Assembly: GCA_045106415.1 (NCBI GenBank)
Contig: JBGCEP010000033.1
Span: 1-51,284 of the forward strand
Direction of reading: 5' to 3'
From: Oligoflexales bacterium
Lineage (GTDB): Bacteria; Bdellovibrionota_B; Oligoflexia; Oligoflexales; Bog-1112
DNA: 51,284 bases
Below the pieces are notes generated by a model, which saw only the letters and a list, made by a program, of their open reading frames with translations, had not been told where the DNA came from and ran no database searches. Both the position numbers and the translations under genes were made by a program. Numbering within the stretch: position 1 is the first letter of the stretch; each line of letters opens with the position of its first letter. Below are positions 1,904 through 39,282 of this stretch, one piece after another.

Positions 1904-1931
1904 TATCAACCCCCCCATGATCTATGAAGGG

Positions 1932-2108: not shown

Positions 2109-2441
2109 TTATGGAATTAAAGCAGAGTGGTTCACCATAAAAATATAAAATGCAGTCCCAAAACCAATGCTTAAAAGCGATTGGCGTTTCCACAAGTGAA
2201 GTCCAGCAACAATAATAACAGCTAGCATCTCTGGTATTCCAAAAGGATATTTAACAAACTCAACATCTTTAAAACAAAAAGCGACTAAGATTAGCATAAT
2301 AGCTGGAGGAAGGTATGATCCTAAATATGTAAAAATTGGATTTGAAACTAGTGCATCTCGAAAAATAAACGGAAAAGCGCGCAAAACAAAATTACATAGC
2401 CCCATACCAATAACGAGGTACAATAAAAATTGATCATCCAT
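2109..2441 (-). CDS. azlD: Branched-chain amino acid exporter small subunit AzlD
   Basis: RAFPF, YLGSYLPPAIMLILV, LHLWKRQSLLSIGFGT motifs; overlaps the azlC stop. Confidence 0.85.
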   Translation of the reverse strand: MDDQFLLYLVIGMGLCNFVLRAFPFIFRDALVSNPIFTYLGSYLPPAIMLILVAFCFKDVEFVKYPFGIPEMLAVIIVAGLHLWKRQSLLSIGFGTAFYIFMVNHSALIP

Positions 2442-3120
2442 TACGTTGCTCCCTTACACCGCGAAGACTCAAAGAAAATGCGCTGAGCCCAATAGCCCCA
2501 ATAAGCATGTGTGATGGAAAAAATAGAAAACCACTCAGTGAGGCTAATGAACCAACAACAAAGGGAAATATTTTCTTAACTGATAAAGCTTGCTCAATCA
2601 TAAGAACAACAAATAGTGCTGTGAGACAAAACTCCATCCCTTTTACATTTTGTGGTGCAGAACTCGCTAATATTGTTCCAGCTAAGGTTCCGCCAAACCA
2701 AATCATATGAAGAGCAAACGAGACAGCAATAATATATGGAACAGCCTTGCGATGTTTTGATGTTGTTAAAATCCCAAAAGCCTCATCAGAAAGGCCGAAA
2801 ATCATATAAAATCGCGAAAAAAATCTCTGTGGGTAAATGTCAAAAAGAGAGAGGCCATAAAAAAGATGACGAGCGTTGACAAGGGCCACAGCGCTAATAA
2901 TGTCCACTAAACCTTGACCTGCAGCCATCATAGACATAGCGACAAATTGAGATGATCCGGCATTTGCTAAAAAACTCATAAGAGGAGCCCAGTACCAACT
3001 ATAACCTTCTGTTTGCATAAGATATCCAAACACAATCCCGGTGGGAAAAAGCCCAAAAAAAACAGGTGATGAGTCTTGGAAAGCTTGTTTTATATATGCA
3101 ATCTTCGTCATGTTTTTCAT
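2434..3120 (-). CDS. azlC: AzlC family branched-chain amino acid permease
   Basis: AGSSQF, VNARHLFYGLS, FGLSDEAF, GMEFCLTALFV motifs. Confidence 0.9.
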   Translation of the reverse strand: MKNMTKIAYIKQAFQDSSPVFFGLFPTGIVFGYLMQTEGYSWYWAPLMSFLANAGSSQFVAMSMMAAGQGLVDIISAVALVNARHLFYGLSLFDIYPQRFFSRFYMIFGLSDEAFGILTTSKHRKAVPYIIAVSFALHMIWFGGTLAGTILASSAPQNVKGMEFCLTALFVVLMIEQALSVKKIFPFVVGSLASLSGFLFFPSHMLIGAIGLSAFSLSLRGVREQRNG

Positions 3121-3121
3121 C

Positions 3122-4486
3122 CTACAAAAGAGCTGCGATCATAACGATCATGACCACAAAGGGTGAAACCGTACGAGTTAACCACAAGAAATAACTACTA
3201 AATGATGTGTCTTCTCCAATAACATCCAGAGAAGCTGGGCGACCAAGAACCCAACCAAAGAACAGCAGAGTCATGACTCCAGCTAAAGGTAAAAAGACAC
3301 GGCCTGTTGCTACATCTAAAAAATCAAATGCCGTCATACCAATCAATGTATACTCAGATAATAAATTAAAAGATAAAGAGCACAGACTTCCAAGAAGAAA
3401 ACAAACTAATGATAGAAAAAGAACAATATAAGGTCTTGGAGTATTAGGGTAACGTTCTGTCAACCAACTTGTTCCAACCTCAAGAAGAGAAATTGAAGAC
3501 GTCAATGCAGTGATAGCAATAAGAGAGAAAAAAATCATGGAAATCCAGTGGCCATACGGGAGATATTGAAAGAGAGCAGGTAAAGTCTCAAACAAAAGAC
3601 TTGGTCCACTCCCAGGCTCACCATGAAATGTAAACACAACTGAAAAAACGATAATACCTGAAATAAGAGCAATGCAGGTATCTAAGCAAATAACAGTTAT
3701 AGCGACAGGTAAAATCTTTTCATCAGGAGCAAGATAACTCCCGTAAGTCACCATAATTCCGACACCAATACTGATTGTAAAAAAAGAGTGACCAAATGCC
3801 TCTAAAATACTTGTAGCCGAAAGTTTGCTAAAGTCAGGAACTAGAAGAAAATGTATCGCATCAGAGAAGCCTGACATCCACACACAGTTCACAAACATAA
3901 AGAGAAGAACACTCATAAAAAGCGGCATCAAAAATTTATTAAAGCGTTCAATACCACCACTCACCCCTCGGGCGACTATCATTCCTGTGATGCTTAAAAA
4001 GGTAAATTGGCACCCTAATTGCCATAAAGGCTGACCCAAAACGTCTGCAAACTTAGTACAAGAGACAGCATGATTACAATTTACAAGCCATATATCGTTA
4101 ACAGAATTCATGAAGTAGTAAAAAATCCATCCACCAACAACACTGTAGTATGAATAGATTAAGATAGAACTGCACACCCCAAGTCCACCAGCAAAACGCC
4201 AAAAAGATTTATCGTGATCAAGGTTTTTAAATGACTGAACAGCACTTGCTTGACCCTTTTGGCCAATGTAAAGTTCAGAAAGAAGAGCCGGAAGGGCAAT
4301 AAGCACTAGCGCAAGAAGGTACACCAGAACAAAAGCTCCACCACCATTAACACCTGTGATATAGGGAAACTTCCATACGTTTCCTAAACCTACAGCTGAT
4401 CCTGACGCAGCTAAGATAAGACCGAGGCGATTGCTCCAAGCTCCTCTATGAGGACTTAATATTTTTGGTTCTTTTGAAAAAGTCAC
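3122..4486 (-). CDS. Sodium-dependent amino acid transporter, NSS/SNF (LeuT-like) family
   Basis: GSAVGLGNVWKFPY, GGGAFVLVY, YSYYSVVGGW, GIERFNKFLMP; multiple TM segments; apparent operon with azlCD. Confidence 0.93.
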   Translation of the reverse strand: MTFSKEPKILSPHRGAWSNRLGLILAASGSAVGLGNVWKFPYITGVNGGGAFVLVYLLALVLIALPALLSELYIGQKGQASAVQSFKNLDHDKSFWRFAGGLGVCSSILIYSYYSVVGGWIFYYFMNSVNDIWLVNCNHAVSCTKFADVLGQPLWQLGCQFTFLSITGMIVARGVSGGIERFNKFLMPLFMSVLLFMFVNCVWMSGFSDAIHFLLVPDFSKLSATSILEAFGHSFFTISIGVGIMVTYGSYLAPDEKILPVAITVICLDTCIALISGIIVFSVVFTFHGEPGSGPSLLFETLPALFQYLPYGHWISMIFFSLIAITALTSSISLLEVGTSWLTERYPNTPRPYIVLFLSLVCFLLGSLCSLSFNLLSEYTLIGMTAFDFLDVATGRVFLPLAGVMTLLFFGWVLGRPASLDVIGEDTSFSSYFLWLTRTVSPFVVMIVMIAALL

Positions 4487-4547
4487 AAAAATTCCTTTAA
4501 AAGACTAGGAGATGCAAACAGACAATAACCTCTGCTTCTAACGGAGC

Positions 4548-4576
4548 ATTGTCGGTGAAAGAGTATATCTTGTCAA
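4548..4576 (-). promoter_or_regulatory. sigma70-type promoter of the NSS-azlC-azlD operon
   Basis: TTGACA-N17-GACAAT on the minus strand, about 60 nt upstream of the start. Confidence 0.6.
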
Positions 4577-4683
4577 GAACAACGAGAACTTTAGTGATCA
4601 TAATTTTATTGAGAAGTTCAAACTGTTAATACCTAAAACTATCATCTCCCGAAACACACTCTATCTACCTAAATTAACAAGAC

Positions 4684-4710
4684 TAAACTTCTTATTTAAA
4701 GATCCGATAA
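4684..4710 (+). promoter_or_regulatory. sigma28 (FliA)-type promoter
   Basis: TAAA-N15-TCCGATAA, one mismatch to consensus. Confidence 0.7.
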
Positions 4711-4762
4711 GACATTCAGGTTATAAGTTTTTACATAAACACTACACTTTAGGGAGTCTCAT

Positions 4763-4933
4763 TTGAAAGTTCAGGTCAAGATCGCAGGGTACACACCCTT
4801 TACCTGGCTTTGTCTAGGTTTGATGAGTTATAGTGCTTGGTCATTTAAAAATCAGGTCCTCGATTCAAATCTCGTTCAAAAAGCAGGACAAAGGGCCACA
4901 GCAATGCATCTAGCGGACCATACTGACTATTAG
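4763..4933 (+). CDS. Small 56-aa protein with one hydrophobic segment (below the ORF track cutoff)
   Basis: AGGGAG RBS, TTG start, MKVQVKIAGYTPFTWLCLGLMSYSAWSFKNQ...DHTDY*; directly downstream of the sigma28-type promoter. Confidence 0.5.
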   Translation: MKVQVKIAGYTPFTWLCLGLMSYSAWSFKNQVLDSNLVQKAGQRATAMHLADHTDY

Positions 4934-4944
4934 AGGAAAGTCGG

Positions 4945-5661
4945 TTATAAATTCGTAACTATTGCTGAGCACAGTCCAATAAGGCCGCCGAAAACACCAC
5001 CCCAGACGACAAGCCAGCCTAGGTGCTCTCGGATCATGTCTTGAATAATGTTCTTCACCCTTGGGGGGGTGAGTTCATTTAATCGATCATTAATCAATTT
5101 TTCAACAATTGTCCGCAATTTTTCAGACTGGTCTTCGCCTTCGCCAATGAGAGCATTTTTAAACTTATCAGATTTTAAAAGGGAAGATAGTGTCAGCTTC
5201 ATGTGTGAAACTAAATCCTCACGCAGTGGTTCTAAAACTGTTTTACCACCGAACATTTGAAGCATTCCACCCAGGCTAGATTCTTCAACCTTGACAAGAA
5301 GTTGGTCAAAAATATCATGGTATGGAATGAGATCTAACACTCGGTGCTGAATATCATCAATATTCCTATGAAGCGTGCTTTCTACGAATTTTTCCATACG
5401 TGACACTTCAAAAAATTCTTGCATAATAAGGTAATGGAGCTGCTTTTTGATCGATTCAAAACGCACTTGCACAACGCCTGAACCATATAAGCCTGGTACT
5501 TTTTCAAAAAGCATATGGATTGCAACCCAGTTTGTCACAGACCCAGAAAATGCAAAAAGACCAATATGCATCCATACTGATTGAGAGGGCTCAGAACAAA
5601 ATAGTGATAGAAGCATAAAAGAAACTGCAATCAAATTCGTTATCAAACTTTTTTTACACAT
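4945..5661 (-). CDS. DUF445-family membrane protein
   Basis: GLFAFSGSVTNWVAIHMLFEKVPGLYGSGV and MIREHLGWLVVWGGVFGGLIG. Confidence 0.8.
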   Translation of the reverse strand: MCKKSLITNLIAVSFMLLSLFCSEPSQSVWMHIGLFAFSGSVTNWVAIHMLFEKVPGLYGSGVVQVRFESIKKQLHYLIMQEFFEVSRMEKFVESTLHRNIDDIQHRVLDLIPYHDIFDQLLVKVEESSLGGMLQMFGGKTVLEPLREDLVSHMKLTLSSLLKSDKFKNALIGEGEDQSEKLRTIVEKLINDRLNELTPPRVKNIIQDMIREHLGWLVVWGGVFGGLIGLCSAIVTNL

Positions 5662-5743
5662 GTGCTATGCCTCATCCTGAAAAACAGAACGAACAAACTA
5701 ACTTAAGATTTTGAAAATATCAATAAGGTGATGCAGATAAATA

Positions 5744-7363
5744 CTAATGTTTTTTGGAAGTTCCACAAACAGATTTAAATGCTTCGATAGACCATGACCT
5801 CAGAAACCCTTCATCTTTCATGATCCTATCCTCTATCTTCAAGCTCCATAGCCCATTTTTAATGCCTTTCACAAATTCAACGTCATACTCAACTTCACCA
5901 TTCACAGCATGACGAGAAGAGTTGTTCATATCATGCAAAGTACCTTCAATAATATGTTCCACTCCTGCAGGATCCGTGAGAGTAATTTCAAGGTCATCAA
6001 ACGCAGTGTGATTTAAGTCCATGATAATTTTTACTTTTTCAATCCCATATGCAATTTCTCGACTATCTATCTCAGTTTCTAAAGAGAGGTGGTCTAAAAT
6101 ATCGCCATTTGTAGTTATTTTATGCTTGAAAGCTGAAACTTCTTCACCAATTTTAAGAGGAACAAAACTCATTTCAGAAAAATCTCCATATTCAACCATA
6201 ATAGGAATAGACAGTTCTATGCCACAGGGTGCTCGAGGAGAAATAACTCCTATATATGGCTCATCTGTAATAACACTTTCGTTTGGACGTAAAATTTGTG
6301 AAGACACTGTAGATTTTTTGTCAAAATAGATCCATGGGCTATGAAAATTATAAATCACAGCTCGAGAGGACCTGAAGGTATGATTGCTTGTATTTAAAAG
6401 ATTTCCATATAATCGAATTTCATCGCCTGGGTATAGCATTTGTTGAGATTCGTTCTTATGCGTTAGAAAATTTGTCTGTTCTACTTTTACTTTTGGTTGA
6501 AACCAACATCTTGGCCAACGAAGAGTTTTATTCTCGGATACACAAGACACAGATGAGGCTGTTGCTTCAACTTCTTTGCTATTTCTATTCTTACCTTCTT
6601 GAGATCCTGGAATTTTATCAAGTTGAATATTTTTATCACATAAAAGTCCTTGAACAAATGTCGTATACCGGCATTGTCCTGCTGGGTGCTGAGTTAAAGT
6701 TTTTGGGGCATGTGAAGAGTCTTGTTGATCAGGATGAAAATCTCGGGATGGTGACATTACTTTCATCAAATTTTCAACAGCTGTTAAGCCACGTGCACAT
6801 AAGGTGTTTTTCTCATTTGAGGTAGAGTTCTTAGTACAAAAATCTTGGATTTCTGCCGATGTATCATACCATAGTGTTTGGTTCTTTTTATGATCATCTT
6901 CCCATACTTTCTTCACGCAACTTTGAGTTGCAAAATAATCCGAGCGGCCCTCAACTGACATCCATGTTTTATCATCTTTATATGGATAACCAGCAAAGTG
7001 ATGACCAAGAACATGGCACATAACAACTGTCAAACTGTCCACTGTCAGTAAGGAATGATTTAATAATCCCCCATAGATTGACACTCCCCACTCTCTATTT
7101 GTTCTCCATGGAGCTGCATTTACATCATTGTCATCCCAATACAATCGTACTTTAAGGTTTTTTTCTTGACTCACGTAAGGCTGAAATATCGTCAATATTT
7201 TCTCAATCACTAAATTCAAAGCATCTTCTCTTTTTTGTCTTTGTGAGCTCGTATGGGAAAAAGATTGTGATTGAGGTTTATTTTTAAAAAAACCTGCATA
7301 GACATCTATTGATATAAATAACGCAATTATCATGACTGGTAATGAAAATAGCACTCTTTTCAT
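5744..7363 (-). CDS. Secreted zincin-like protein (degenerate HExxH) with C-terminal proprotein-convertase P domain
   Basis: Signal peptide; VNA...VVMCHVLGHH...EGRSDYFAT; C-terminal LNHTAFDDLEITLTDPAG...NGLWSLKIED...GFLRSWSI. Confidence 0.75.
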   Translation of the reverse strand: MKRVLFSLPVMIIALFISIDVYAGFFKNKPQSQSFSHTSSQRQKREDALNLVIEKILTIFQPYVSQEKNLKVRLYWDDNDVNAAPWRTNREWGVSIYGGLLNHSLLTVDSLTVVMCHVLGHHFAGYPYKDDKTWMSVEGRSDYFATQSCVKKVWEDDHKKNQTLWYDTSAEIQDFCTKNSTSNEKNTLCARGLTAVENLMKVMSPSRDFHPDQQDSSHAPKTLTQHPAGQCRYTTFVQGLLCDKNIQLDKIPGSQEGKNRNSKEVEATASSVSCVSENKTLRWPRCWFQPKVKVEQTNFLTHKNESQQMLYPGDEIRLYGNLLNTSNHTFRSSRAVIYNFHSPWIYFDKKSTVSSQILRPNESVITDEPYIGVISPRAPCGIELSIPIMVEYGDFSEMSFVPLKIGEEVSAFKHKITTNGDILDHLSLETEIDSREIAYGIEKVKIIMDLNHTAFDDLEITLTDPAGVEHIIEGTLHDMNNSSRHAVNGEVEYDVEFVKGIKNGLWSLKIEDRIMKDEGFLRSWSIEAFKSVCGTSKKH

Positions 7364-24694: not shown

Positions 24695-24974
24695 ATACAA
24701 GAAAAGTCGATATTTTTTTTGCTAGTTCAAAGTCTTTATCTGTGATTCCCTGTGCATCGTGAGTTATTAAATCAACAACAACTCTATTGTATACATTACT
24801 CCACTCTGGGTGATGGCATGCTTTTTCCGCTTCTAAAGCCACTTTCGTCATAAAGCCAAAAGCACTTACAAAATCGTGAAACACATGATCTAGGTGAAGT
24901 TTGCCATTTCTAACACTCCAACTCGATAGCTCTGCTATTTTTTTCTCTAGTTCTAGATCTTCGTAAGTTTTCAT
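24693..24974 (-). CDS. phhB: Pterin-4-alpha-carbinolamine dehydratase
   Basis: [45 protein letters not shown]. Confidence 0.93.
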
Positions 24975-26928
24975 TTTTTGCCTCTTGTTGAGATGTCATA
25001 AAAGCGTTCCACCGCTGAAGCGTTCGAGTCCATGAATCCAACATAACACGCGTTTCTTCTTCAGAAATAAGAAGAGGGGGAACAAGATAAACAGTATTTC
25101 CAAGGGGACGTAAGAGAAGACCCTCTTCAATTGCTAATTGGTGAAAAATATTCGCACTACCATCAAAATAGCTTCTTGTCTGTGAATAAGGTAACTCAAC
25201 GGCCAGGATACTCCCGAGCACTCTTAAATTCCGTACTGAAAGCTCTTGAGCATAAACTTGTGCCCATGACTGGTAAGCTTTCTCAAGTTTCATTGATTTT
25301 TCTGAAAAATCAAACTTTTCGTAAAGTTTTAAAACGCTAATTGCTATTTCACAACCAATCGGATTTCCTGCAAAAGTGTGACCATGCAATAAGGCTTTAT
25401 GAGAGTCATCAGAAATAAAATTCTCAAAAACTTCTTCTGTCGCTAGCGTCGCAGCAAAGGGTATACTTCCTCCTGTAAGCCCTTTCGCTAAACAAACAAT
25501 ATCAGGATCAATCCCTGCTCTCTGACAAGCAAGAAACTTTCCTGTTCGACCAAGTCCTGTAAAAACTTCATCAGCCACAAGATAAACACCGTATTCTTTG
25601 CATAATGTCGCCAGTTGGCGTAGCCATTCTTCATCTTGAAGAAGCATTCCCCCAGCCCCTTGCATGAGAGGCTCAATAACCACTGCTGAAAGTTCATCTC
25701 CATGTTCCTGGAACCAGCTGTTGAGTTCATCAACCTTACTCCCTCCAGCATGCTTTAACAGGGGATGTAAGGTCAGGGTTTTAAACAACAAGGACTCAAA
25801 AGCATCATGAAAACCGCTTCCACCTAAAGCCATTGCTCCAAAAGTATCCCCATGATATCCACTATGAAGTTTTGCTATTTTTGTGCGATGAGCCTGGCCG
25901 CGGTTCCTATGGCTCTGCCACGCCATTTTCAGACCCACTTCCACTGCTGTTGAACCGTTATCTGAATAAAAAACTTTCGATAACTTTGGCGTAAACTTCA
26001 AGAGTCTATGAGCACACTCTACTGCTGGTCTATGCGTGGTTCCTGCAAAAATAACATGATCGAGATCTCTTTGCTGGCGAAACATCGCTTCTCGAACTTC
26101 GACTCGTCCATGTCCTAAATTATGCACCCACCAGCTAGACTGACAATCTAAAAGTTTTTTTCCATCTGAGAGCTCAACAAAAACACCTTGTGCCCGTTCC
26201 ACAATGACAGGATCTGGTGCTGTCTTATGTTGAGTAAAAGGGTGCCAAATATGTCGAGAATCTAGATCTTTTAAGTCGTGATCACTAAAATCTGGTGTCT
26301 TCTTAAACAAGCGTTCCACTTCGCCTACTAGTTTTTTACATGCATCCTGCCACAAAGGATTTTTAGCAGCCTTAGGCATTTCTGGGAACTCTATCAATGG
26401 TATTTCTAACATCTCAGTAAGAGTTGCTGTATTCTCGTGATGATCTCCGGATAAAATCACACCTCGCAAATCAACACCCTCTGCCTGTAAAGCCTTAACA
26501 GTTAGGCAGGTATGATTGATAGTGCCTAAACGATTTCTTGCGACCACAAAAACAGGGAGCCTATGGTAACGAGCAAATTCCACCCAAGTTTCATTTGAAA
26601 AATTCACTGGGACGTAGATCCCACCAGCACCTTCAACTACAAGATGATTGTAATCAGGTGGTTGAAGCTCTTCAATGGAAGGTAACACTCGCTTCTCTCG
26701 TTGCGCGGCATGAGTTGGAGCCACTGCGTCTGAAAGACACAATCCTGGTATCACTAAACAACCAGGTGCATTCTCTTTGACAAAGTTTGCGTCTAGATGC
26801 TCTCCACCTGTTTGCAAAGGCTTATGATAAAAAGCCTCACCTTTCGTTTGAAACATTCCATGGCAAAGAGCTGCGCATATCTGGGTTTTGCCGATATCTG
26901 TATCTGTCCCAAGGATTAAGACTCTCAT
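24910..26928 (-). CDS. bioDA: Fused dethiobiotin synthetase / DAPA aminotransferase (BioD-BioA)
   Basis: N-terminal [29 protein letters not shown]-terminal [58 protein letters not shown]. Confidence 0.93.
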
Positions 26929-27079: not shown

Positions 27080-28690
27080 TTAATGATTACATGGTTCGTA
27101 CAGCCACTTCTCTAATTCTGGAGCCACCTTCTCAACTTGTGGTTCAATTACTTTTTCATAAAGTATGTCAACACACTGCCTATAAGTCTGTGTACCAGGC
27201 AAAGAGCTATGACGAGCAGCCTCCAAAAGAGAAGAGCCCACTTTATTCAAACGATCGAGCACAAATTTTAGCTCCAGGTCTCTTGAAAGATTCAAATCTT
27301 CCTGTTCTTTTTGAACCTCTGGGTGACGCTCGAGTTCTTCTAAAATGTGATGAATATCTGGTCGCTCATCTGGGTTTAAGCAAAAACATCCTTCTAAAAG
27401 ATCGATTTCATCTGAAAACCCTTCGGAGTAACAACCACAGTCATCTATGAACTTAGCTAATTTCTGTTTTCGATATTGATGAATATCTTTTGGCTTTGCA
27501 GGAGGAGTATCCATAGGAACGGAAAGTTTATGAGGGTGAAAAATTCTTTTCCATGCTTTCGCAATGCTACGGCCAAAGTGAGCTGTTTTTTTGACTAATG
27601 ATTCACTATTTTCTTCCTGGTGCCAAAATTGATGAGAAGATTGTGCAAAATGTAAGAAATATGTTGGATCTCTAAATTTTAACTTCGTGAGAGAGACCTC
27701 TCGATTTAACTCTAGGCGCTGCATCCAAGAACGAAGGTGTGTTTCGTCTAAGTTAAACCCATCATGTAAAACTTCATCAAGCTCTAAAAGGAGGGACTCC
27801 ATCTGTGGTGTTAACTCTTCAGGAAAACCAAGCTTTAAAATCGCCTCTAGAGTTTTTAACGTCGAAGCACTCGCATCACCTGTCATGTTCATAATCGTGC
27901 GCCTTGTAATCAATTCCATCAAGGTACATCCCACCGACCAAACATCTGCAGATTTTGTATAGAAACCCTCAAGTAAAATCTCTGGAGGCCTGTAAAACCT
28001 AGTCACAATGAGATGTTCTGGTCCGTGCCGGCGACCTACTTGAAAATCTTGGTCAACACTTCCCAAATCAGCAATAACACAATATGGGGGCTGCATATTT
28101 GTATTTACAAGAATATTTTCGGGCTTAATATCAAGATGCATGAGGCCGTGACTATGAAGAACATCAATGCCTTTTAAAATCTGGTAAGCCATACTTTTTC
28201 TTATAGGTGCTGGAATCGGCTCCAAAGACCCTCTAGGGTGATATGCAGAGGGTTTTGCCTTTTTTTCGTCAAAGTTTTGAAGGTACTCAAATAAATCATC
28301 AGAAAACTTGGGCATCACAAGGTAGTGTTCTTTTCTTCTTACGCTCGGGTCATCCGAAGTGTAAAGAAGCCCAGAAAGAACATAACGACTTTTAAGAGTT
28401 GATAAAAGAAGAGCTTCGCGCGCTGTACTCATCATCGCTTCATAACTCAAAGTATGTTTCATCATATCAATTTTCTTCACAGCAAACTCTTTGCCTGAAG
28501 GGCACTTCATTGAAAAGACAACCCCGTAGCTACCTTCATTGAGATAATCAACGACTTCACAGCCTTTAGGCACATGGACCGTACGTGAATGCCCACTTCT
28601 CATCACGGGAAGAACCCGAACCTCTGTCTCTAACGCTACTGCGAAATGAGAGATCAACATGGTTACCAAAACCACAAAACACTGCTGCAT
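27080..28690 (-). CDS. Hanks-type Ser/Thr protein kinase with N-terminal signal peptide
   Basis: EGSYGVV, AVKK, HLDIKPENIL, ADLG, VTRFYRPPE, DVWSVGC; start at MQQCFVVLVTMLISHFAVA after GAGG (track start 28717). Confidence 0.88.
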   Translation of the reverse strand: MQQCFVVLVTMLISHFAVALETEVRVLPVMRSGHSRTVHVPKGCEVVDYLNEGSYGVVFSMKCPSGKEFAVKKIDMMKHTLSYEAMMSTAREALLLSTLKSRYVLSGLLYTSDDPSVRRKEHYLVMPKFSDDLFEYLQNFDEKKAKPSAYHPRGSLEPIPAPIRKSMAYQILKGIDVLHSHGLMHLDIKPENILVNTNMQPPYCVIADLGSVDQDFQVGRRHGPEHLIVTRFYRPPEILLEGFYTKSADVWSVGCTLMELITRRTIMNMTGDASASTLKTLEAILKLGFPEELTPQMESLLLELDEVLHDGFNLDETHLRSWMQRLELNREVSLTKLKFRDPTYFLHFAQSSHQFWHQEENSESLVKKTAHFGRSIAKAWKRIFHPHKLSVPMDTPPAKPKDIHQYRKQKLAKFIDDCGCYSEGFSDEIDLLEGCFCLNPDERPDIHHILEELERHPEVQKEQEDLNLSRDLELKFVLDRLNKVGSSLLEAARHSSLPGTQTYRQCVDILYEKVIEPQVEKVAPELEKWLYEPCNH

Positions 28691-28789
28691 ACAGACCTCA
28701 CGAGAATACAAACTCATGAAATCTATGAGTAAAATAAAAAGGAGTCAAGAAAACTCCTCTTTACACTTTAATTTCGAGACATTAACGGA

Positions 28790-31216
28790 TTAGCGGGCCC
28801 ATTCAAAATCAGACGGAAACTCTGTTAATGTTTGGCGGCTCATCTCCAAATGGAAATCACCACTTTTTAGTTGTTCGTTCACAATATCTAGGTTTGATTG
28901 TTGAATCACATAATCACCTGTTGCTAGGCCATTCGCTACAAATTGGTGAGTTGCAACAAATTCTGGGGTCCCAAATGCAGAACCTTCTAGACTTAGGTTC
29001 CATACTTGATGATCCTCACTCAAAGGAATTCTTTCAACAGTTTTGACTGTTTGCCAAAAACCTTGCGCCCCTCGTATTTGATCTCCTTCACTCACTTGGT
29101 GAGCTCTGAAAAAGCCCTCAGGTGTTTCAAAAGGGTGGTTCCATGTCGCACTCACAGCTTTTCCTGTGTCAGTCATAATACGGTACATATCTCTTTCCTG
29201 TGGACCACTAATGACTTCTGAAACCTTTGACGATGTTTTTGTTGCAGGGTTGAACACTCTATCACCGACGTTCACCTCTGATATCATTCTCATCGTCCCA
29301 TCTGCCATCATCACTGGCGTGTCCGCTGTAAAGCATCCATTTAAGTTCCGGCACCTCACCGCACTGAGCTCCCGACGGCACATATCTCCTGTATTTCCAT
29401 CTTCTGCTCTAGCTTCAAGACGCTTACCTGAATTGTAATACCCCACGTAGAAGCACATATCCATTTTATTAATCGGAGGATTAAAACCTGGGGGGTTTTG
29501 GCCATTTGCCAACTCCTGCACCGCACAGTTCGCCTCCCAGACTCTTGTAATCATTCGTTCTTTCCATTCGCCTTGAGAGGTTTCTTCACCTTCAGCGAGC
29601 TCACCCTCGTCTTCAATAACGAGATCATTTTCTCCGACAACTGGCAGTGCATCACCGGCAACCTCCTCATCAACAGACTTCACTTCTTCTGACTTAGGAA
29701 ACCACTTCACCTCTCGCGTCATAACAGATCCCACAGAGACGTCATTAAAAGCATGAGGCATTTCCCTAAACCCTTGTGCCGACTCTGGATCAAAATCATG
29801 ATGCACTTCAGTATCTACAAAATTTTGAATGTCTTTATTCACAACAGTAAATCCTGCTGTCGTTTGATCAGAAGCCTTCCAGTCTGTGATCGTCATTTTT
29901 GTATTATTCACTTCCCATGTTCTTGCGCCGGAAGGATCTGTCACCAGGCGGCTTGGTGGTCCTATATACTGACAAGATCTCATACCCTTGTAGTAGTAGG
30001 TATCCAAAGCATAACTCAACCGCATACGAGCACAAAAGTCCGCTCCAGGACTACGAATAGATCTTGCACATGCAGCTTTAAGGTCTTCAGCATATGAAGG
30101 ATCGTCAAAAGGAGTGCCTGCTCTCCAGGGTCGAGCTTTTGCACCAACTCTACGAGAATTTTTTATTTCACTTCCCTGTAAGAACCCTTCAAACCGGAGA
30201 GGTGCGTCTCCTCCTGAAAGACCTCCTGCATTATTTGGTACTGAAATGTAAATAAAGTCAGAATCAGTCACAAGGTTTTCATCCATTTGTGAAAAAAGAT
30301 ATCCATCGATTCCTTGGACTCCGTCAAATGGATTGACTCGCCCTGGTCCAAAGGCTTGATTTAAAAACTGGATCATTTGCGTGGGACGTTCTTCATCCTC
30401 AGTGTATAAGATGGAACGTTCTTGAAGCCCCATCGGAAGAACGCCTCGTGGAATTCTATAATCAGAAATATAATTAGGATTAGGCATCAATTTAGGTATA
30501 AGAGAGTCTCCTTCTCCTCTCGTAAACATCACATCACCAGCACGGTTTTTGACCGGCATCATATAGGGGCAGTGATCCGTCTGACAAAACTCTCCATCAA
30601 AATTTTCATTACACTGAACGCTCGCAGCAGGAAGAGTCAGGCGAGCAGATCGAATCAGTTTTCTCCCGACCCCAGATTCGCTTACCGCATCAACAAGTAG
30701 ATAGCCACTTGCACGGGCGTTTGTGACATTTTCTGGATCGATCAATGATGTTGGAACAATCGTTGTCGTCACAAAGGCATCACTTTGACAGTTCACTTCT
30801 GATAACCACTCCGTTCCTTTATCGTCACCAAACACTTCAGCTGGCTGCACACCCATACTTGAAGAAATACAGTTTTGCACAATAAAAGCCCCTGTCCCGT
30901 CAAGGGACCATGATCCTATTGTCGACGATGGAGAAACATCAATATTAGCGCCATCAAGTCCTGTTCCTAAAACAAACTGACTTACAGAGTCATCTGGCTT
31001 TAAAACAGTTGCACCTAAAAGTTGTGACAATTGTTCAAGGGCGCTCTCATTGGCGCCTTGCATATGAAGAGTATCTGCAGCCATTTCAGAAAGCTGTTTA
31101 TTCCCATCAGCGACAAAGCGGGCTCCTTCAATCAGAGTCAAACCTGCGACTGCTATTGCGCTGGCCATAATAATGGGACTTGCGCCTTTTTGCCATTTTT
31201 TTCGCTGTGAGTTCAC
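28790..31216 (-). CDS. PilX-like prepilin N-terminus, large Cys-containing domain and C-terminal Hint domain
   Basis: GGAGG RBS and GTG at 31216; KKWQKG|ASPIIMASAIAVAGL...GANESAL; Hint blocks GCFTADTPVMMADG, ATWNHPF, VWNLSL, HQFVANGLATGD. Confidence 0.8.
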   Translation of the reverse strand: MNSQRKKWQKGASPIIMASAIAVAGLTLIEGARFVADGNKQLSEMAADTLHMQGANESALEQLSQLLGATVLKPDDSVSQFVLGTGLDGANIDVSPSSTIGSWSLDGTGAFIVQNCISSSMGVQPAEVFGDDKGTEWLSEVNCQSDAFVTTTIVPTSLIDPENVTNARASGYLLVDAVSESGVGRKLIRSARLTLPAASVQCNENFDGEFCQTDHCPYMMPVKNRAGDVMFTRGEGDSLIPKLMPNPNYISDYRIPRGVLPMGLQERSILYTEDEERPTQMIQFLNQAFGPGRVNPFDGVQGIDGYLFSQMDENLVTDSDFIYISVPNNAGGLSGGDAPLRFEGFLQGSEIKNSRRVGAKARPWRAGTPFDDPSYAEDLKAACARSIRSPGADFCARMRLSYALDTYYYKGMRSCQYIGPPSRLVTDPSGARTWEVNNTKMTITDWKASDQTTAGFTVVNKDIQNFVDTEVHHDFDPESAQGFREMPHAFNDVSVGSVMTREVKWFPKSEEVKSVDEEVAGDALPVVGENDLVIEDEGELAEGEETSQGEWKERMITRVWEANCAVQELANGQNPPGFNPPINKMDMCFYVGYYNSGKRLEARAEDGNTGDMCRRELSAVRCRNLNGCFTADTPVMMADGTMRMISEVNVGDRVFNPATKTSSKVSEVISGPQERDMYRIMTDTGKAVSATWNHPFETPEGFFRAHQVSEGDQIRGAQGFWQTVKTVERIPLSEDHQVWNLSLEGSAFGTPEFVATHQFVANGLATGDYVIQQSNLDIVNEQLKSGDFHLEMSRQTLTEFPSDFEWAR

Positions 31217-31256
31217 GATCTTTCCTCCAGACACCTTGGTTCTCCGAACATGTAAC

Positions 31257-31283
31257 ATTTCGGACTCAGGGCTGGAAATGTTG
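31257..31283 (-). promoter_or_regulatory. sigma28-like promoter of the pilin-Hint gene
   Basis: CAAC-N15-TCCGAAAT. Confidence 0.4.
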
Positions 31284-33375: not shown

Positions 33376-36300
33376 TTATGGCCCGCAGGAAGCTCCTGAA
33401 TAATCCGCTTCTTTTTCTTCACATTGACTCAAGACATCCGCATCAGAGGGAACAGAGTTATACAGTCGCATCATTCCATACTCTGCTGCACAGCCTCCAG
33501 CAAATTTTCCTATTTTTAAGGTCGAGATAATCCCAGAAGTGATTGTTCCACCTGTCATGATGGCATCCCCAACCTTAACTCCATCAAGATACAGCTTTGC
33601 TGCCCCACCTGTCTGAGTATGCGAAGATAAAACAATATGGTGCCACTGGCCGTCATCAATATCACTTCCCATCTGAAAAGGCAGATAATCACCTGTCATT
33701 TTAATTTCACCAACACCTCCGAGAGACAACTTGTTGTGACGTCCAGAGATCGAACCATCTTCCCACTTCACAAGATCACACGAACTTGTTCCTCCTGCGA
33801 CTTTCACCCATGCCTCAAGGGACAGTTTCTGTGCAGTCATTGCTTTCACAGTATGAGTGATAAAACTATCTGTAAATTTAAACCGATATGGATCACCAGC
33901 ACTGCCATCTCCAAGCCAAGTATCGTTGCTTATATTACAGCCTCCGCCTGCACTAATAGACCCGTCAAGGTCACTCATCAGATCTGACCAAACAGGCAAA
34001 CCTGCACACGACGCCACACCTGTCATATCCTTAAAACCGATTCTTCTATTGTTTGCGGCATCTAAATACACCATGAGTCCGCTGTTTTCTCCTTGGTTAC
34101 TTACTGGGTGTGTTCGATAGATATTTGCAATATCATTAAAAAGGGTAGATTGAGACGATTGGTAAAGAGAAGATCTTGCCACAGCAAAAAGAGCAATGTG
34201 CCCATGAAAGTCTTTTGAACCTGACACAAGTTGCCCTAACCGACCCTCCATTGTATCATCAACAGCCCAACCACTGGCATCATATGATGAGTTAACCTTA
34301 ATGGCTCCATTTACATAAACATCAAGCATGCCACCTGAGGATATAGCAATACTATAATAAACAGGATTTCCACCAAACTGAAAACCTAAAGATTTTGTCG
34401 TTACACCTAAGTCTAAAACAACATCATTATCAGTTTTTTGAATCAACTCAATCTTACGAGTTGTGTCTTTTCCATGATAAGAAAAGAGTACGCGATCCTG
34501 AGCTGGAGTCCCTGCTTCCATTTGCGCTAAAATCACAAAACTAATCCCAGAATCGTAAGCATCTTTTTCCAAATCAGGAAGACTCACAAAACTGCCACCT
34601 TTAAAAGCAAGAGTTTTTCCGTTAAGAGCATCACTTCTCCAGCCTTCACCACTTTGTGTAAAACCGGCAAGAGAAGCTCCTTTGCCACCTTCTGAAAACG
34701 AGTGTGGGACAGAAGCCCACGTTGTTATAGCTGGACTTCCGCCTGAGGTTGTATCTCCATCAAATCCTCGATCATAACGAGAAGCTTGAAAAAAATCTTC
34801 CCATTGAACACCACTGTTATGACCTGGGATAGGAAGAAGAAAATTTGATGGAACAAGCCCACCTGTGTAGTCTTGAAGTTTAATCTCAAAATCAACAGCT
34901 CCATCCCCTTGAAAATCAAGTTTTACAAAAGTATCCGAACCGGTCACCTCAGCAATCAATTGGCCAACCTCACCCTGCATTGTCGCGCCATTTTCAAGAT
35001 TTAAAGAAACATCGGAAAAACCTCTGAAATCTAGAATATCACCTTCTGCCGGGTTAAAATCAGTAATAGTGTCCGTTTTATCAGCAAGCGAATAAGACAT
35101 CTCCGACCAGGAGAAGACATCTGCACCTGACCCACCGGTAAGGATATCTGCGGAAAATGTTAAATCACGAATCTCAAGCCCAGCTCTATATGCCAAATAG
35201 CGTTCAACATGCTCTCTTTCAAGACCATTTAAGGCTTCATCATAGAATAAAAATTCACTTACAGATGCGTTTGTCCCAGTATTACTTGCATAACCGTGGC
35301 CAATACGAACAGCTGACCAATCTGAAAGAGGTGAACCAGAGGATGATGAAACAGAGTGACCATCAACATAGAGCGTTTGTGTTCCAGCATCATCAACCTT
35401 CAGTACAAACATATGAAATTTACCATCTGCTACCACTGATGATTGGAGCTGTGTTGTGTTTGGTATCAAAGACGTTGAAATAACTCGAACGCGACCATCT
35501 CCTGTCACCTCTAAACCGACAACGTCACTTGAATCTCCAGCAGAAAACAAAGTCCCTGCACTTGCTTGAATTCTCGCTAAAATAGCCAGCGTAAACCCAC
35601 CACTTAATTGATTCGGTAAAGTTCCATCGAACCCTACATCTCCCGCCCCGGAAAAAGCAACAGCACCACGTCCTGATCTATCAATTGTCACCATAGAGTA
35701 GCGGTTCAAAGTCACCCCATTCTCCGACATTGAGTGCCAATTAGGGTATGAGTCGACATCAGAAGGTCCCCCCTTATCAACAACATACCAACCCACAGGA
35801 TCTGACTGTGAAGAGTCATTTCCATGAAGACTTGATATCCTTATTTCAGAATCCGCTAAAATTTCATCAGATTGGTTCGTTCCTGTAATTGTATCTCCCC
35901 CAAATCCACCATAAAATTGGTCATCATTTGAGTTTGTTTCTGTGAGTGTATCGTCTCCATCTGTGGAAATAAGACCAACTCTTGCCGTTAAATTGAAAAC
36001 ATCGCCATTAGCATCTGTAATTTTATAGTCAAAAGCCTCATACTCTTGGCTATGAGTATGGTTTTCATCAGGGACCCAGCGCCAATAAACATTGTCGCCA
36101 ATCGGATCACCTGGATTTATATTTTCAGGCGTAAACTGATTCGCTTCAGACAAAGCATGAAGCTGGCCACTTTTAATACTTACTAATTCCACGGTAATTG
36201 GCTTTGCGAATGGAGCAAAGCCTGGAAATTCCCCCTCATCATTGGTGTACCGAAAATAATATGCAGGGCCTTTATCTTGCGACTCTGAAAACCAGTCAAT

Positions 36301-39282
36301 AATAGGTGTCTGTGCTTGGTTTTCATTGTTTGTTGTGCGATTTAATGTAAAAGATTTTGATGGCGGTGTTGAATAATTGAACTGAAAAGACTCTGTACGT
36401 GACCCTAGGCAGACATACCATGTCCCGTTTGGCACAACATCAGGAATTGTATAGTCCATACTTAATTGTGTATTCGGGATATTTTCATCTTCATGAACAG
36501 TGTTCTGGCAACCTTCATCACTTGCGACTTTAAGGCTATAAAAATTTGCATTTGTTGAAGCAGTCCAAGTCAATGACAACGTTGAATCTGTCACGGTATT
36601 CGACAAAGAAGAAAAGTTAAAATCTCCTAAAATCACATTCGAATTCGAAAAGAATTCAAGTTCACATAAATTTTCTTGTGAAGCTAAAGGATACCAGTTT
36701 ACATTCACATCATTTTTAATTCTAGGCTTTGGGCACAAAGATCCTGCCTGTTTTTGGCACAAAACAACACTATTGTCCCCGGGCAACAACGGATAAAAAG
36801 CATCATCACTGATTTGATCTCCGTAAGAGTCGTGGCAACTCTCAAAAGCTCCCCCGGAAAGGGCTGTCGACAAAGATTCTGCCTCATTGGCTTTTTGTGA
36901 TATTTCTGTTGTGAGCTGATCAAGCTCCGCTGTGCTGAGTTCACTCGATACGTTCTCACGTATTGCTGTATTCAATTGAGTTTCAAGGTCCCCAAGACCA
37001 CCATCATTTTGAGCAGCACCTTCTAGGATCGCACCAGCTAAGTCTGCAGATGCATTTCCAAAATCAACCACAGTTCCACCGCTTTTGATGTCTTTTAAAC
37101 CATCAAGAGCTCCTTTTGACACCTCGCTTGCAAAATCGTTTAAAGATGCAACTGACTCTCCACCTGTTGCAAATTCTTGGCTCGCCGTTGTAAAACCTTC
37201 CATAGAGCCTCTTGCAACTTTCGATGCCATCGCTTGAATATTCGTAGCATCAATCTGAGCACCAGCAACTTTCACCTGAGAGAGTTGTTGGATACTTGTT
37301 TTTGTCACAGCAGAAGCGATTGAACTCATATCTGAAGCTGAAACACCAGCTTTTTTAAGACCTCCAGTTGCCCCACGAGCAATTCCCTGAACCGCTGACT
37401 GAACTGCGGTTGAATCAGACATTTCAGCGCCATCAAGACCTTGCACCGCACCAGATACGATCCCTTGAATCATAGCTGAAGAAGATGCCGTTGAACCCTT
37501 CGCAGTCGAACGCTCACCAACGGCTTCCATTGTTTTACCCACAATGTCTGACATCGCAAGTGCAATGTCGGAGTCACTCATGCCAGCGTTATCTAAATTA
37601 CCCATCGTTCCGGCCATCACGTTAGAGACATAACTTGCTGAAGAGTCATTCTCAAAACCTTTGACCGCACCAGCTGCAATAGCACCTGCACCTGAACTCA
37701 GATCACTTTCAGAAAAACCTGCAGTTTTCATTGAACCGACCATACCACCAGTCACAGCCTGGAGTTGGCTTCCTAAGTCTATCGTTCCATCGTTTTGAGC
37801 TTCAAGAGCTTTAACAGCACCTTGTGCCACACGTGACGCAGCCCCGGCTAAATCAACTGTTTCACTGCCTTCTTTCGCATCAAAACCTGATTTTAAAGTA
37901 CTCAATCCTGCCATAGACGCTGAGGCCATAGCTGCTGCAAAAGTTGTATCCCCACTGGGAGCGATGGATGAAAGCGAAGACATTGCTCCTTCTGTAACAA
38001 GGCCAATCGCCTCCGTTAAATTTGACGAAGCTGATCCGTTTGCATCCTTGAGATCAAGACTACTCAAACCAGCAATAGATCCTTGTACACAACCCCCAGC
38101 GGCTTTTGCCGCTTCTGCATCTGAAATCCCGGAGTCCTTTAAACCACCAATCGCACCTGCTGCAACAGAAGAAGCAAGGCTCGACACGCTCTGTGCATCT
38201 CCACCCACATTAGATAAACCTGTCATTGCTCCTGCTGCGATAGATTGTGCAACAGCTGAGATATCACCACTGCCAACATCTTTAATCCCTGAAACAGCAC
38301 CCTCCGTCACCGCTTTAGTAATCGACGAGAGCTCTCGGCCTGAAGATTGACTTAACCCTCCTACAGCACCCTCTGTCACCGATGACGCTAGAGCAGCCTT
38401 AGCTGAATCCCCTTGAGCCGAAGATGCTGCAATACCTTTAACAGCACCTTTTGCAATACTCTTCACCATTTGAGCCATTTTCGCATCGTCAACATTTGAT
38501 GATGCAGAAAGTGCTGAAACCGCACCCTGAGTTAACGACTTAGCAACATCACCCAGTTTGTCGTCACTCACACCTGCACGACCGATTGCAGCAACAGCAC
38601 CAGTAGCAACCGATTGAGCCACACTCACAAGAACACTTGTATCGAGCGATGACTGGCGACCTAAAGACTGCATTGCTCCTTGTGTAACAGCAGCAGCGCC
38701 ACTTGCAGCATCATCACCAAAGCCAGCATCATCAAGTGAAGACACTGCCTGACCGACCATCGTCTGAGCTAGAGCTGCTAAACCATCGGAAGAAGAGCGT
38801 CCGGGCGCTGTCACAGAATCAATTGAAGAATCTAAAATTTTTGAGGTAAACGAAGAACGCAACTCAAGATCACTCAATGCTGCATCAGGAGAGTTCAGCC
38901 CTCCCACCGCGCCTTTAACAATAAGAGATGCCACATCTATTGCTTTTGTAATCACAACATCCTGGTCGTCTTCAGCTAGGTGAAGACCAATCGCCAAAGT
39001 CCCTGCTTTCATAGACTTCGTTGCCGAGGTTGTAATAGCGTTCGCCTGAACCAGGTCCATCCCTCCCGAAACAAGATCTTCTTGAAGCTCTTGAATCATC
39101 GTGGTTCCTAATGCCAGAGAGTCGGCTCGGAGTTGACTATCTCCCTCAGAACTAGAGGTGTTTAGAGCCGATATCACAGGGCTTTTTAATGTTGCAATTG
39201 CATCACCACCAAAAGGAGCATCACAAGAAGAGATCGTAAAAGCAAAACTCAGACTCAAAAAACGTACATTCAGAAGCTTCAT
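33376..39282 (-). CDS. Giant surface lipoprotein/adhesin: Gly-Ala-Ser helical repeats, FN3/Ig-like domains, RTX-like repeats, three LamG-like domains
   Basis: Lipobox TISSC; repeats such as VAQSIAAGAMTGL; LSLTWTAS; GGFGGDTITG and LTGGSGADVF...DTITDFNPAEGDILD; DGKFHMFV..LYVDG and DGQWHHIV..LYLDG. Confidence 0.8.
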   Translation of the reverse strand: MKLLNVRFLSLSFAFTISSCDAPFGGDAIATLKSPVISALNTSSSEGDSQLRADSLALGTTMIQELQEDLVSGGMDLVQANAITTSATKSMKAGTLAIGLHLAEDDQDVVITKAIDVASLIVKGAVGGLNSPDAALSDLELRSSFTSKILDSSIDSVTAPGRSSSDGLAALAQTMVGQAVSSLDDAGFGDDAASGAAAVTQGAMQSLGRQSSLDTSVLVSVAQSVATGAVAAIGRAGVSDDKLGDVAKSLTQGAVSALSASSNVDDAKMAQMVKSIAKGAVKGIAASSAQGDSAKAALASSVTEGAVGGLSQSSGRELSSITKAVTEGAVSGIKDVGSGDISAVAQSIAAGAMTGLSNVGGDAQSVSSLASSVAAGAIGGLKDSGISDAEAAKAAGGCVQGSIAGLSSLDLKDANGSASSNLTEAIGLVTEGAMSSLSSIAPSGDTTFAAAMASASMAGLSTLKSGFDAKEGSETVDLAGAASRVAQGAVKALEAQNDGTIDLGSQLQAVTGGMVGSMKTAGFSESDLSSGAGAIAAGAVKGFENDSSASYVSNVMAGTMGNLDNAGMSDSDIALAMSDIVGKTMEAVGERSTAKGSTASSSAMIQGIVSGAVQGLDGAEMSDSTAVQSAVQGIARGATGGLKKAGVSASDMSSIASAVTKTSIQQLSQVKVAGAQIDATNIQAMASKVARGSMEGFTTASQEFATGGESVASLNDFASEVSKGALDGLKDIKSGGTVVDFGNASADLAGAILEGAAQNDGGLGDLETQLNTAIRENVSSELSTAELDQLTTEISQKANEAESLSTALSGGAFESCHDSYGDQISDDAFYPLLPGDNSVVLCQKQAGSLCPKPRIKNDVNVNWYPLASQENLCELEFFSNSNVILGDFNFSSLSNTVTDSTLSLTWTASTNANFYSLKVASDEGCQNTVHEDENIPNTQLSMDYTIPDVVPNGTWYVCLGSRTESFQFNYSTPPSKSFTLNRTTNNENQAQTPIIDWFSESQDKGPAYYFRYTNDEGEFPGFAPFAKPITVELVSIKSGQLHALSEANQFTPENINPGDPIGDNVYWRWVPDENHTHSQEYEAFDYKITDANGDVFNLTARVGLISTDGDDTLTETNSNDDQFYGGFGGDTITGTNQSDEILADSEIRISSLHGNDSSQSDPVGWYVVDKGGPSDVDSYPNWHSMSENGVTLNRYSMVTIDRSGRGAVAFSGAGDVGFDGTLPNQLSGGFTLAILARIQASAGTLFSAGDSSDVVGLEVTGDGRVRVISTSLIPNTTQLQSSVVADGKFHMFVLKVDDAGTQTLYVDGHSVSSSSGSPLSDWSAVRIGHGYASNTGTNASVSEFLFYDEALNGLEREHVERYLAYRAGLEIRDLTFSADILTGGSGADVFSWSEMSYSLADKTDTITDFNPAEGDILDFRGFSDVSLNLENGATMQGEVGQLIAEVTGSDTFVKLDFQGDGAVDFEIKLQDYTGGLVPSNFLLPIPGHNSGVQWEDFFQASRYDRGFDGDTTSGGSPAITTWASVPHSFSEGGKGASLAGFTQSGEGWRSDALNGKTLAFKGGSFVSLPDLEKDAYDSGISFVILAQMEAGTPAQDRVLFSYHGKDTTRKIELIQKTDNDVVLDLGVTTKSLGFQFGGNPVYYSIAISSGGMLDVYVNGAIKVNSSYDASGWAVDDTMEGRLGQLVSGSKDFHGHIALFAVARSSLYQSSQSTLFNDIANIYRTHPVSNQGENSGLMVYLDAANNRRIGFKDMTGVASCAGLPVWSDLMSDLDGSISAGGGCNISNDTWLGDGSAGDPYRFKFTDSFITHTVKAMTAQKLSLEAWVKVAGGTSSCDLVKWEDGSISGRHNKLSLGGVGEIKMTGDYLPFQMGSDIDDGQWHHIVLSSHTQTGGAAKLYLDGVKVGDAIMTGGTITSGIISTLKIGKFAGGCAAEYGMMRLYNSVPSDADVLSQCEEKEADYSGASCGP

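Follow-up and report, generated by a model that had tools for sequence, protein, structure and literature searches.

A C-terminal Hint domain with an invariant Gly-Asp end on a probable GspK/PilX-type tip minor pilin of an Oligoflexales bacterium

Tip minor pilins determine the binding partners of a type IV pilus or pseudopilus and the start of its assembly. According to the consulted parts of two papers (PMC5207764, PMC7541494), GspK of the type II secretion system (T2SS) and PilX of type IVa pili carry a hydrophobic residue at position +5 and lack the Glu at that site (Glu5), exceed the other minor pilins in size, are present once in each cluster and are located at the tip. A survey of modular pilins lists 264 architectures, and the terms 'Hint' and 'intein' are absent from its main text and two supplementary files (PMC8179133). 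Here we describe a gene of an Oligoflexales bacterium (GCA_045106415.1, contig JBGCEP010000033.1; the window, i.e. the whole stretch of DNA analysed, comprises 51,284 nucleotides) whose product combines a pilin-like N-terminus with a C-terminal Hint domain. We favour, with a probability of about 70%, a modular tip minor pilin of GspK/PilX type that cleaves itself at a Gly/Cys junction after export. Literature searches with Hint or intein together with pilin terms or taxon names returned no paper on a pilin-Hint fusion, and within this literature the claim of the first-pass annotation, an earlier reading made from the sequence alone, that no such system has been described holds.

The open reading frame (ORF) list gives a frame of 822 aa on the minus strand (28790..31258), the numbering of which is used throughout except where 808-aa numbering is stated. 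The GTG at 31216 appears to be the better start, because the Shine-Dalgarno sequence GGAGGA (31223..31228, minus strand) lies 6 nt upstream of it and because the public protein collection calls the gene from the same codon (P0002, 808 aa), which supports the start assumed in the first-pass annotation. The whole gene occupies 28790..31216 and comprises 808 codons and a stop codon, corresponding to residues V15-R822; all its features given below lie on the minus strand. Every motif that had been named from the sequence alone was found at its place in the translation, from the basic leader, GANESALEQLSQLLG and YLLVDAVSESG..RKLIRS to G/CFTADT, TWNH, VWNL and HQFVANGLATGD.

The protein starts with a basic, 11-aa leader, (V/M)NSQRKKWQKG (31184..31216), which ends with Gly25 and leads straight into a hydrophobic helix some 20 residues long; a putative prepilin peptidase site lies between Gly25 and Ala26. 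This α1-N segment, ASPIIMASAIAVAGLTLIEGAR (31118..31183), has Ile at +5, lacks Glu5 and is helical in the AlphaFold2 (AF2) model of the N-terminus. The leader Gly is kept in all 16 family rows that have an N-terminus, and Glu is found at +5 in none of 17. The conserved α1-C motif GANESALEQLSQLLG (31013..31057; A 13/17, N 13/17, E 11/17, Q 16/17, L 17/17, G 16/17) is located within the 72 positions of a hidden Markov model (HMM) of the N-terminal module and is followed by YLLVDAVSESG..RKLIRS.

In the AF2 models the module A26-P210 (30629..31183) consists of one long helix and a subsequent antiparallel β-sheet. The model of residues 1-235 (808-aa numbering, as for the elements that follow) has a mean predicted local distance difference test (pLDDT) score of 66.2 and contains a helix of 55 residues (14-68) and strands at 72-74, 81-83, 103-105, 111-116, 148-159, 171-181 and 186-195, an arrangement that suggests a lollipop-like fold with a pilin-type head. 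When this model was compared with 48,161 representative chains using VIA-align, type IV pilins or pseudopilins took the first six places and 13 of the first 20. The top row was GspI from the GspK-I-J complex (3ci0_I, Z 6.4, root mean square deviation (rmsd) 2.5, 80/83 residues), followed by the Thermus competence pilin 6qvf (Z 6.4), EpsI (2ret, Z 6.3) and the XcpV/XcpW entry 5bw0_B (Z 5.5); further rows were two Shewanella pilin structures (Z 5.2 and 5.1) and Neisseria meningitidis PilX (Z 4.6). Pseudopilins were again the first non-Hint rows when the full-length AF2 model was searched independently. In the ESM Atlas the best named feature matches of residues 1-200 scored 0.93, 0.93 and 0.92 and belong to clusters in which 86%, 25% and 19% of the members carry PilX_N (PF14341), matches that have the rank of a lead. 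The low-confidence model of the Atlas itself gave TM scores of 0.56/0.62 to an N_methyl cluster, and residues 1-625 reached scores of 0.86 or less, again a lead only.

All seven orthologous loci in other genomes (L006-L012) adjoin genes whose products bear a canonical G|xxxxE signal. Most often a pilin-like gene of about 250-300 aa precedes the Hint gene, and a second one of about 255-334 aa follows it. The neighbours with a class III signal all have Glu5 and measure 230-334 aa, and five of those tested exceed the N_methyl cut-off; the Hint gene (784-995 aa) is the largest and the sole Glu5-less gene of each cluster. By sequence and gene order the orthologues thus bear the GspK/PilX signature of a Glu5-less, largest subunit present once per cluster, a signature that holds in the relatives and not in the genome under study. 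In the two samples of related Hint ORFs described below, taken together, the flanks that were fetched contain a pilin-like neighbour at 35 of 56 loci. Next to many Hint genes from further subfamilies (L040-L046, L052-L054, L154 and others) stands a gene for a conserved bitopic protein of about 280-340 aa without a known family ('cluster B'), frequently accompanied by two pilin-like genes.

When the N-terminal 627 residues were compared exhaustively with 1.84 billion representative proteins using HMMER, only 19 proteins were found, 14 of them with Hint matches; four of the other five are fragments. The Hint end is not obligatory in this N-terminal family, as P0019 (1357 aa) is a member that ends differently, with a long C-terminal extension showing weak Fn3_assoc and CHB_HEX_C matches and no Hint match. 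A word-indexed protein search found the protein itself, its paralogue and one fragment only. The paralogue lies in the same genome (C1:35041-37386, 51% identity), and no further gene of this genome carries the Hint or the N-terminal module. The family profile finds a match at E <= 1e-5 in 86 of the 131 phylum genomes and at E <= 1e-30 in 62. Full-length orthologues are found in just the seven other genomes named above, and the remaining matches listed cover the Hint part alone. Public records name the members 'Hint domain-containing protein', 'Intein N-terminal splicing region' or 'hypothetical protein', and one orthologue is recorded from the cultured species Pseudobacteriovorax antillogorgiicola.

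The Hint module is always C-terminal in the ORFs examined from the phylum genomes. Among 70 related Hint ORFs with N-termini, drawn as two samples of 30 and 40, 58 start with a basic leader and a Gly before a Glu5-less hydrophobic helix, ten are lipoproteins and two (L152, L176) fall into neither class; on reading, the 'E5' flags that a regular expression had set on the Hint ORFs L040 and L046 turned out to be glycines upstream of the real site. The 72-position HMM of leader and helix, for which the own family alone was used, places 19 Hint proteins at the head of 170 ORFs, with E values of 6e-6 to 0.024 for those outside the family. Homologues of the same architecture, for which the first-pass annotation had proposed to look, were found as full-length orthologues. 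At one locus (L047, G031:C125) two Hint-bearing pilin-like paralogues stand in tandem (2605-4581 and 4596-6566). The same Hint subtype also ends short lipoproteins of 337-414 aa as called (L048-L051, L180, L182-L185, L027), which indicates that the module is not tied to pilin-like carriers alone, and in at least four cases (L048, L049, L050, L184) the locus is a conserved operon of lipoproteins that lacks pilin genes.

These lipoproteins, 10 of the 70 relatives, belong to a set of observations that weigh against a pilin and would fit a bitopic, signal-anchored or Sec-exported envelope protein with a C-terminal Hint domain of bacterial intein-like (BIL) type, as known from many variable secreted bacterial proteins. 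In the genome under study neither Hint copy adjoins a pilin gene. The models PilX_N, Tad, N_methyl, GspK and TIGR02532 match neither this protein nor 25 relatives even at lenient E values. N_methyl PF07963 and TIGR02532 likewise found nothing on N-terminal pieces at E up to 10, and at the same threshold all of Pfam and NCBIfam returned, for the whole protein and for N-terminal pieces, Hint matches and noise (TPR_20, DUF5876). There is no match to the T2SSK models PF21687 and PF03934 or to NF037980 (GspK), and the protein has no T2SSK domain. Searches of the own genome with PF14341 and PF13400 did not hit the Hint gene, and PF14341 stays below its cut-off throughout the 131 phylum genomes. Moreover, the best Z values of the pilin module, 5.5-6.4, lie in the range (Z < 8) for which the tool warns that a match may reflect no more than a common arrangement. 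A Foldseek comparison of the N-terminal model with the PDB had no match at E <= 0.001, and hhalign against the two partner pilin families aligned leader and helix only, with the Gly in register but at E 0.03 and a probability below 2%. The public names, 'Hint domain-containing protein' or 'hypothetical protein', say nothing of a pilin either.

The failure of the pilin HMMs carries little weight, though, since the genome's own T2SS GspK (C21:4548-5798) is recognised by T2SSK_1st alone (36.0 vs 26.2 bits) while its Glu5-less leader escapes the same models. Against an ordinary membrane or Sec-exported protein speaks that the Gly directly precedes the hydrophobic segment in 58 of 58 non-lipoprotein relatives although their N-terminal families otherwise barely align, that 7 of 7 orthologues sit among canonical prepilin genes, that pilins head the search of 48,161 chains with two independent models, and that the best ESM Atlas feature matches are PilX_N clusters. 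We consequently consider this explanation unlikely and prefer the tip minor pilin. The original assignment to the PilX type, in turn, stands only in part: the Glu5-less, GspK/PilX-like behaviour and the pseudopilin-like model agree with it, whereas membership in the PilX family lacks support from the PilX_N, GspK and N_methyl models, which all fail.

The C-terminal part is a Hint domain by several measures. It extends from Cys642 to Asp782 (28913..29335) and contains the motifs G641/C642-FTADT, T705-WN-H708, VWNL, HQFVANGLATGD and HQFVANGLATG-D782. The NCBIfam model TIGR01445 (intein_Nterm) matches with 27.7 bits against a cut-off of 24.5, and four Pfam models of Hint type (Hint, Hom_end_hint, Vint, PT-HINT) match with E values of 2.8e-6 to 1.1e-3, all below their gathering scores. 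Searched against the sequences of solved structures at E up to 1, the family profile found Hint-type entries alone and no pilin, the BIL domain 2lwy being matched with E 2.5e-13. The full-length AF2 model (808 aa, 19-row alignment) has a mean pLDDT of 75.4, mostly about 90 in the Hint part, and a predicted TM score of 0.63. Its Hint part aligns in VIA-align with 2lwy (Z 19.9, rmsd 1.4, 131 residues), the gp41-1 intein (Z 19.5) and Hedgehog 1at0 (Z 18.5), and Foldseek matched it with BIL2 (6y75, E 1.6e-10). HMMs, family profile and modelled structure thus bear out the Hint assignment of the first-pass annotation, but the epithet 'Hedgehog-style' is not supported: by sequence the domain is nearest to BIL and PT-HINT domains and not to Hog, the Pfam Hint model PF01079 remaining below its cut-off (27.5 vs 29.7). 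In a tree of 68 Hint modules made by a quick method, the module of the window is sister to that of the paralogue with a support of 98; as 29 of 65 inner branches are open, the tree was used for this sister relation alone.

The residues expected to drive the chemistry are conserved. In all of 37 aligned modules Gly-1, Cys1, Phe2, His708, Asn754, Gly781, Asp782 and Gln786 are invariant, among them the G, C and F at the predicted scissile bond Gly641/Cys642 (29333..29338), where Cys642 is Cys1 of the Hint domain. In block B, TWNH (29135..29146), His708 is found in 37/37 and Thr705 in 34/37 modules, the other three having Ser. Judged by sequence and model the Hint fold is complete, the residues Cys1, Thr and His are in place, and the domain looks competent; homologues without conserved Cys1 and TxxH, which would have spoken against the proposal, are not the pattern observed. 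The domain ends with Gly781-Asp782 (28913..28918), conserved in 37/37 modules as had been surmised. This pair occupies the position of the His-Asn of inteins and BIL domains, aligns on the VHN/AHN His-Asn of Omnitrophota and Rifleibacterium BILs and marks the point where the alignment of the Hint fold stops. The following residue is Tyr, Phe, Trp, Leu or His in all 37 modules and never Cys, Ser or Thr, so that the absence of both a terminal His-Asn and a +1 nucleophile is confirmed. Because Gly-Asp replaces His-Asn and no Cys, Ser or Thr follows, the domain falls outside both the inteins and the A-type BILs as the consulted part of PMC7765530 defines them. The tail Y783-R822 (28793..28912) starts with a non-nucleophile, contains the invariant Gln786 and is modelled as helices of falling confidence; it comprises 40 aa, not about 35 as first noted. 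Across the subfamilies of the 37 modules the tails vary widely in length and sequence.

Pilin-like and Hint modules are separated by a Cys-rich, β-rich middle domain, A211-G641 (29336..30628), which confirms the domain of about 430 aa noted before and has no Pfam or NCBIfam match. The translation contains 12 Cys residues before the Hint domain, and these 12 are kept in 14-18 of 15-18 family rows. That 12 near-invariant Cys lie outside the Hint domain argues for an exported protein. The AF2 pLDDT is mostly 75-95 in this domain and falls below 50 at residues 511-547 (808-aa numbering); within the domain we found the motif CxxDHCPYMxP and an acidic linker of low model confidence. Residues 211-641 gave no rows in the VIA search run with the full-length model. 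The domain is likely an adhesin or ligand-binding head.

Taken together, we envisage the following course for the favoured tip minor pilin. The basic leader would be removed after Gly25 by the prepilin peptidase of the genome, and the Glu5-less hydrophobic helix would anchor the protein in the inner membrane with the remainder outside the cytoplasm. Residues 26-210 would form the pilin-type head seen in the models, and the protein would take the first place, at the very tip, in a type IV filament, as suggested by the lack of Glu5 and by the size of the gene, the largest of its cluster in the relatives. Two Glu5-bearing pilin-like partners, homologues of which are encoded on contigs C59 and C71, may join it at the tip, where the subunit would carry its cargo of about 430 aa with many presumed disulfides. 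The Hint domain, judging from its fold and conserved residues, would catalyse an N-to-S acyl shift at Gly641-Cys642, and resolution of the thioester would free a pilin-anchored N-fragment of about 616 aa from the 181-aa piece of Hint domain and tail. The thioester may be resolved by water or by another nucleophile, and Asp782 may in addition cut off or ligate the tail.

How the reaction ends can be envisaged in several ways. Asp782 might cyclise and cut the Asp782/Tyr783 bond as in BIL domains, so that the tail is released or becomes ligated to Gly641; in the latter case the new amino group of the tail would attack the thioester, a splicing without side-chain nucleophile after which the mature tip protein keeps its tail. 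Such C-terminal cleavage or ligation is possible because the invariant Asp782 (37/37) lies at the position of the intein Asn, aligned with the terminal Asn of His-Asn BILs exactly where the fold alignment stops, and because, as stated in the consulted part of PMC4031507, Asp or Gln at this position can cyclise. The consulted parts of PMC7664689 and PMC7765530 report that BIL domains lack the +1 nucleophile and yield mainly cleavage products, and the start of the tail is conserved with Gln786 in 37/37 modules. However, the penultimate His that usually assists cyclisation is Gly in 37/37, and the wide differences in tail length and sequence between subfamilies argue against a required mature C-terminal peptide, and we regard this course as unlikely. 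It suffices, with Asp782 exactly at the position of the terminal Asn, to leave the label 'non-splicing' of the first-pass annotation unestablished. A domain that no longer cleaves and merely folds at the C-terminus would agree with the loss of the His-Asn pair, yet Cys1, Thr705, His708 and Gly-1 are kept in 34-37 of 37 modules though the host proteins share as little as 20-30% identity, which makes decay very unlikely. Release of a small effector or signal peptide by a pretoxin-type module is extremely unlikely: PT-HINT (PF07591) is among the best Pfam matches and exceeds its cut-off in the paralogue (30.2 vs 27.7), but only 22-40 aa follow Gln786 in the family and about 8 to 40 aa in other subfamilies, the tails are poorly conserved, and toxin or immunity genes were not found nearby.

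A further outcome, compatible with the tip minor pilin, is that the Hint domain acts as a built-in, single-use ligase at the filament tip whose Gly641 thioester is taken by a chosen nucleophile, which may be a lipid, a glycan, peptidoglycan, a partner pilin or a molecule of the target surface. We consider this unlikely, and the covalent transfer to a lipid, a protein or a prey surface proposed in the first-pass annotation is pure inference. The thioester 'harpoon' adhesins of Gram-positive pili would offer a parallel. If true, a pilus-tip protein would be covalently tethered, a bacterial counterpart of Hedgehog cholesteroylation, and the same module on lipoproteins would represent a general, self-contained system for sorting or attaching envelope proteins.

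In the own genome the machinery for a type IV filament is spread over several contigs. There is one prepilin peptidase (PilD) gene; PilB, PilT-like ATPases and PilC of a type IVa pilus are encoded on C37, PilM and a secretin on C26, and secretins and platform proteins are present. The homologues of the partner families stand alone, at C59 8727-9557 (G|YTLIE; TIGR02532 24.8 vs 16.3 bits) and C71 25963-27186 (G|YSLFE). We rejected the Hint protein as GspK of the T2SS-like cluster on C21, as this cluster has its own GspK. Contig C39 (4752 bp) carries three consecutive large pilin-like genes of 363-460 aa (545-4171), the first without Glu5 and without Hint.

The paralogue lies between an esterase gene and a gene of no named family, the gene of the window between genes for an MFS transporter and a Ser/Thr kinase. 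The latter (27080-28717, minus strand) is of eukaryotic type, has a hydrophobic N-terminal segment and follows the Hint gene in the same orientation at a distance of 72 bp. Further along, a 672-aa ORF (24910-26928, minus strand) with a dethiobiotin-synthetase-type AAA_26 and a class III aminotransferase domain looks like a BioD-BioA fusion. On the other side, 33376-39282 (minus strand) encodes a protein of 1968 aa with a lipobox-like N-terminus and a long, repetitive stretch rich in Ala, Ser and Gly, followed by Laminin-G/ConA-like domains and a serralysin-type C-terminal region. The longest antisense ORF at the Hint gene measures 114 aa. Rfam had no match over the whole window, scans for repeats, promoters and terminators gave nothing above chance level, and a search of public runs found no RNA sequencing for this DNA but two DNA entries of a single study, one of which may be its source.

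A self-processing step is not part of the picture of tip subunits in the literature examined. In this phylum the Hint end is the rule and not an oddity, given that 58 of 70 related proteins have a Glu5-less pilin-type leader and 62 of 131 genomes show a strong match, and this recurrence points to an unstudied maturation step, possibly a ligation, for tip proteins. A distinct Hint subtype with Gly-Asp-x-x-x-Gln in place of His-Asn would also be useful for protein chemistry. As an orthologue is on record from the cultured P. antillogorgiicola, the question is directly testable.

Of the known systems, GspK of the T2SS and PilX of type IVa pili share with the Hint protein the short basic leader ending in Gly, the hydrophobic residue at +5 instead of Glu, the cluster signature of the orthologous loci and, as modelled here, the pilin-type head. 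The Hint protein differs from them in being two to three times longer, in its Hint end, in standing apart from pilin genes in this genome and in escaping the T2SSK, PilX_N and GspK models, whereas the true GspK of the genome is recognised. Modular pilins such as Streptococcus sanguinis PilB, a pilin module with a von Willebrand factor A (vWA) module, likewise carry a bulky grafted module that is probably displayed at the tip, according to the consulted parts of PMC8179133; the survey in that paper required IPR012902, which the Hint protein lacks. A similar combination of parts is seen in proteins of Omnitrophota (L099, L113, L118), which have a class III signal with Glu5 and an internal Hint domain (PT-HINT 78.6-143.4 bits), ending with His-Asn at least in L099 and L118, and of Rifleibacterium (L106/L129), where a Glu5-less leader and a Hint domain occur in one PilX-like protein. 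These fusions share class III signal and Hint domain with our protein, but their Hint domains are internal and only 26-35% identical to the present one over the N-terminal part of the domain; the wider search for related loci started from a four-row alignment, with its reach bounded by two short search patterns. One Omnitrophota pilin-like protein (L118:4467-6497) contains three Hint domains in tandem.

On the side of the Hint domain, BIL domains (A-type, with Clostridium thermocellum BIL 2LWY, and B-type) and PT-HINT are the best match in sequence and structure (E 2.5e-13, Z 19.9), and the variable exported hosts, the missing +1 nucleophile and the retained Cys1 and TxxH are common features. 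A-type BILs, however, end with His-Asn (as given in the consulted part of PMC7765530), in contrast to the invariant Gly-Asp and xxxQ of the domain described here, which is located at the very end of its protein. The motif pattern fits the description of B-type BILs, which have the intein motifs minus the C-terminal one and cleave N-terminally. Class 1 inteins have a terminal His-Asn followed by Cys, Ser or Thr and are inserted in a conserved host; here neither holds, and the domain is terminal. With Hedgehog/Hog the protein shares a Hint domain C-terminal to a secreted Cys-rich domain, the Gly-Cys-Phe junction, the lack of a splicing end and a Z of 18.5 to 1at0, a fold likeness common to all Hint domains; it differs in a PF01079 score under the cut-off, in its bacterial host and in its 40-aa tail, which does not resemble a sterol- or adduct-recognition region and has no Pfam or NCBIfam match. 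By sequence, the combination of a GspK/PilX-type carrier, a terminal Hint domain, a Gly-Asp-x-x-x-Gln end and a large paralogous family in Oligoflexia-type bacteria is a distinct variant among these systems.

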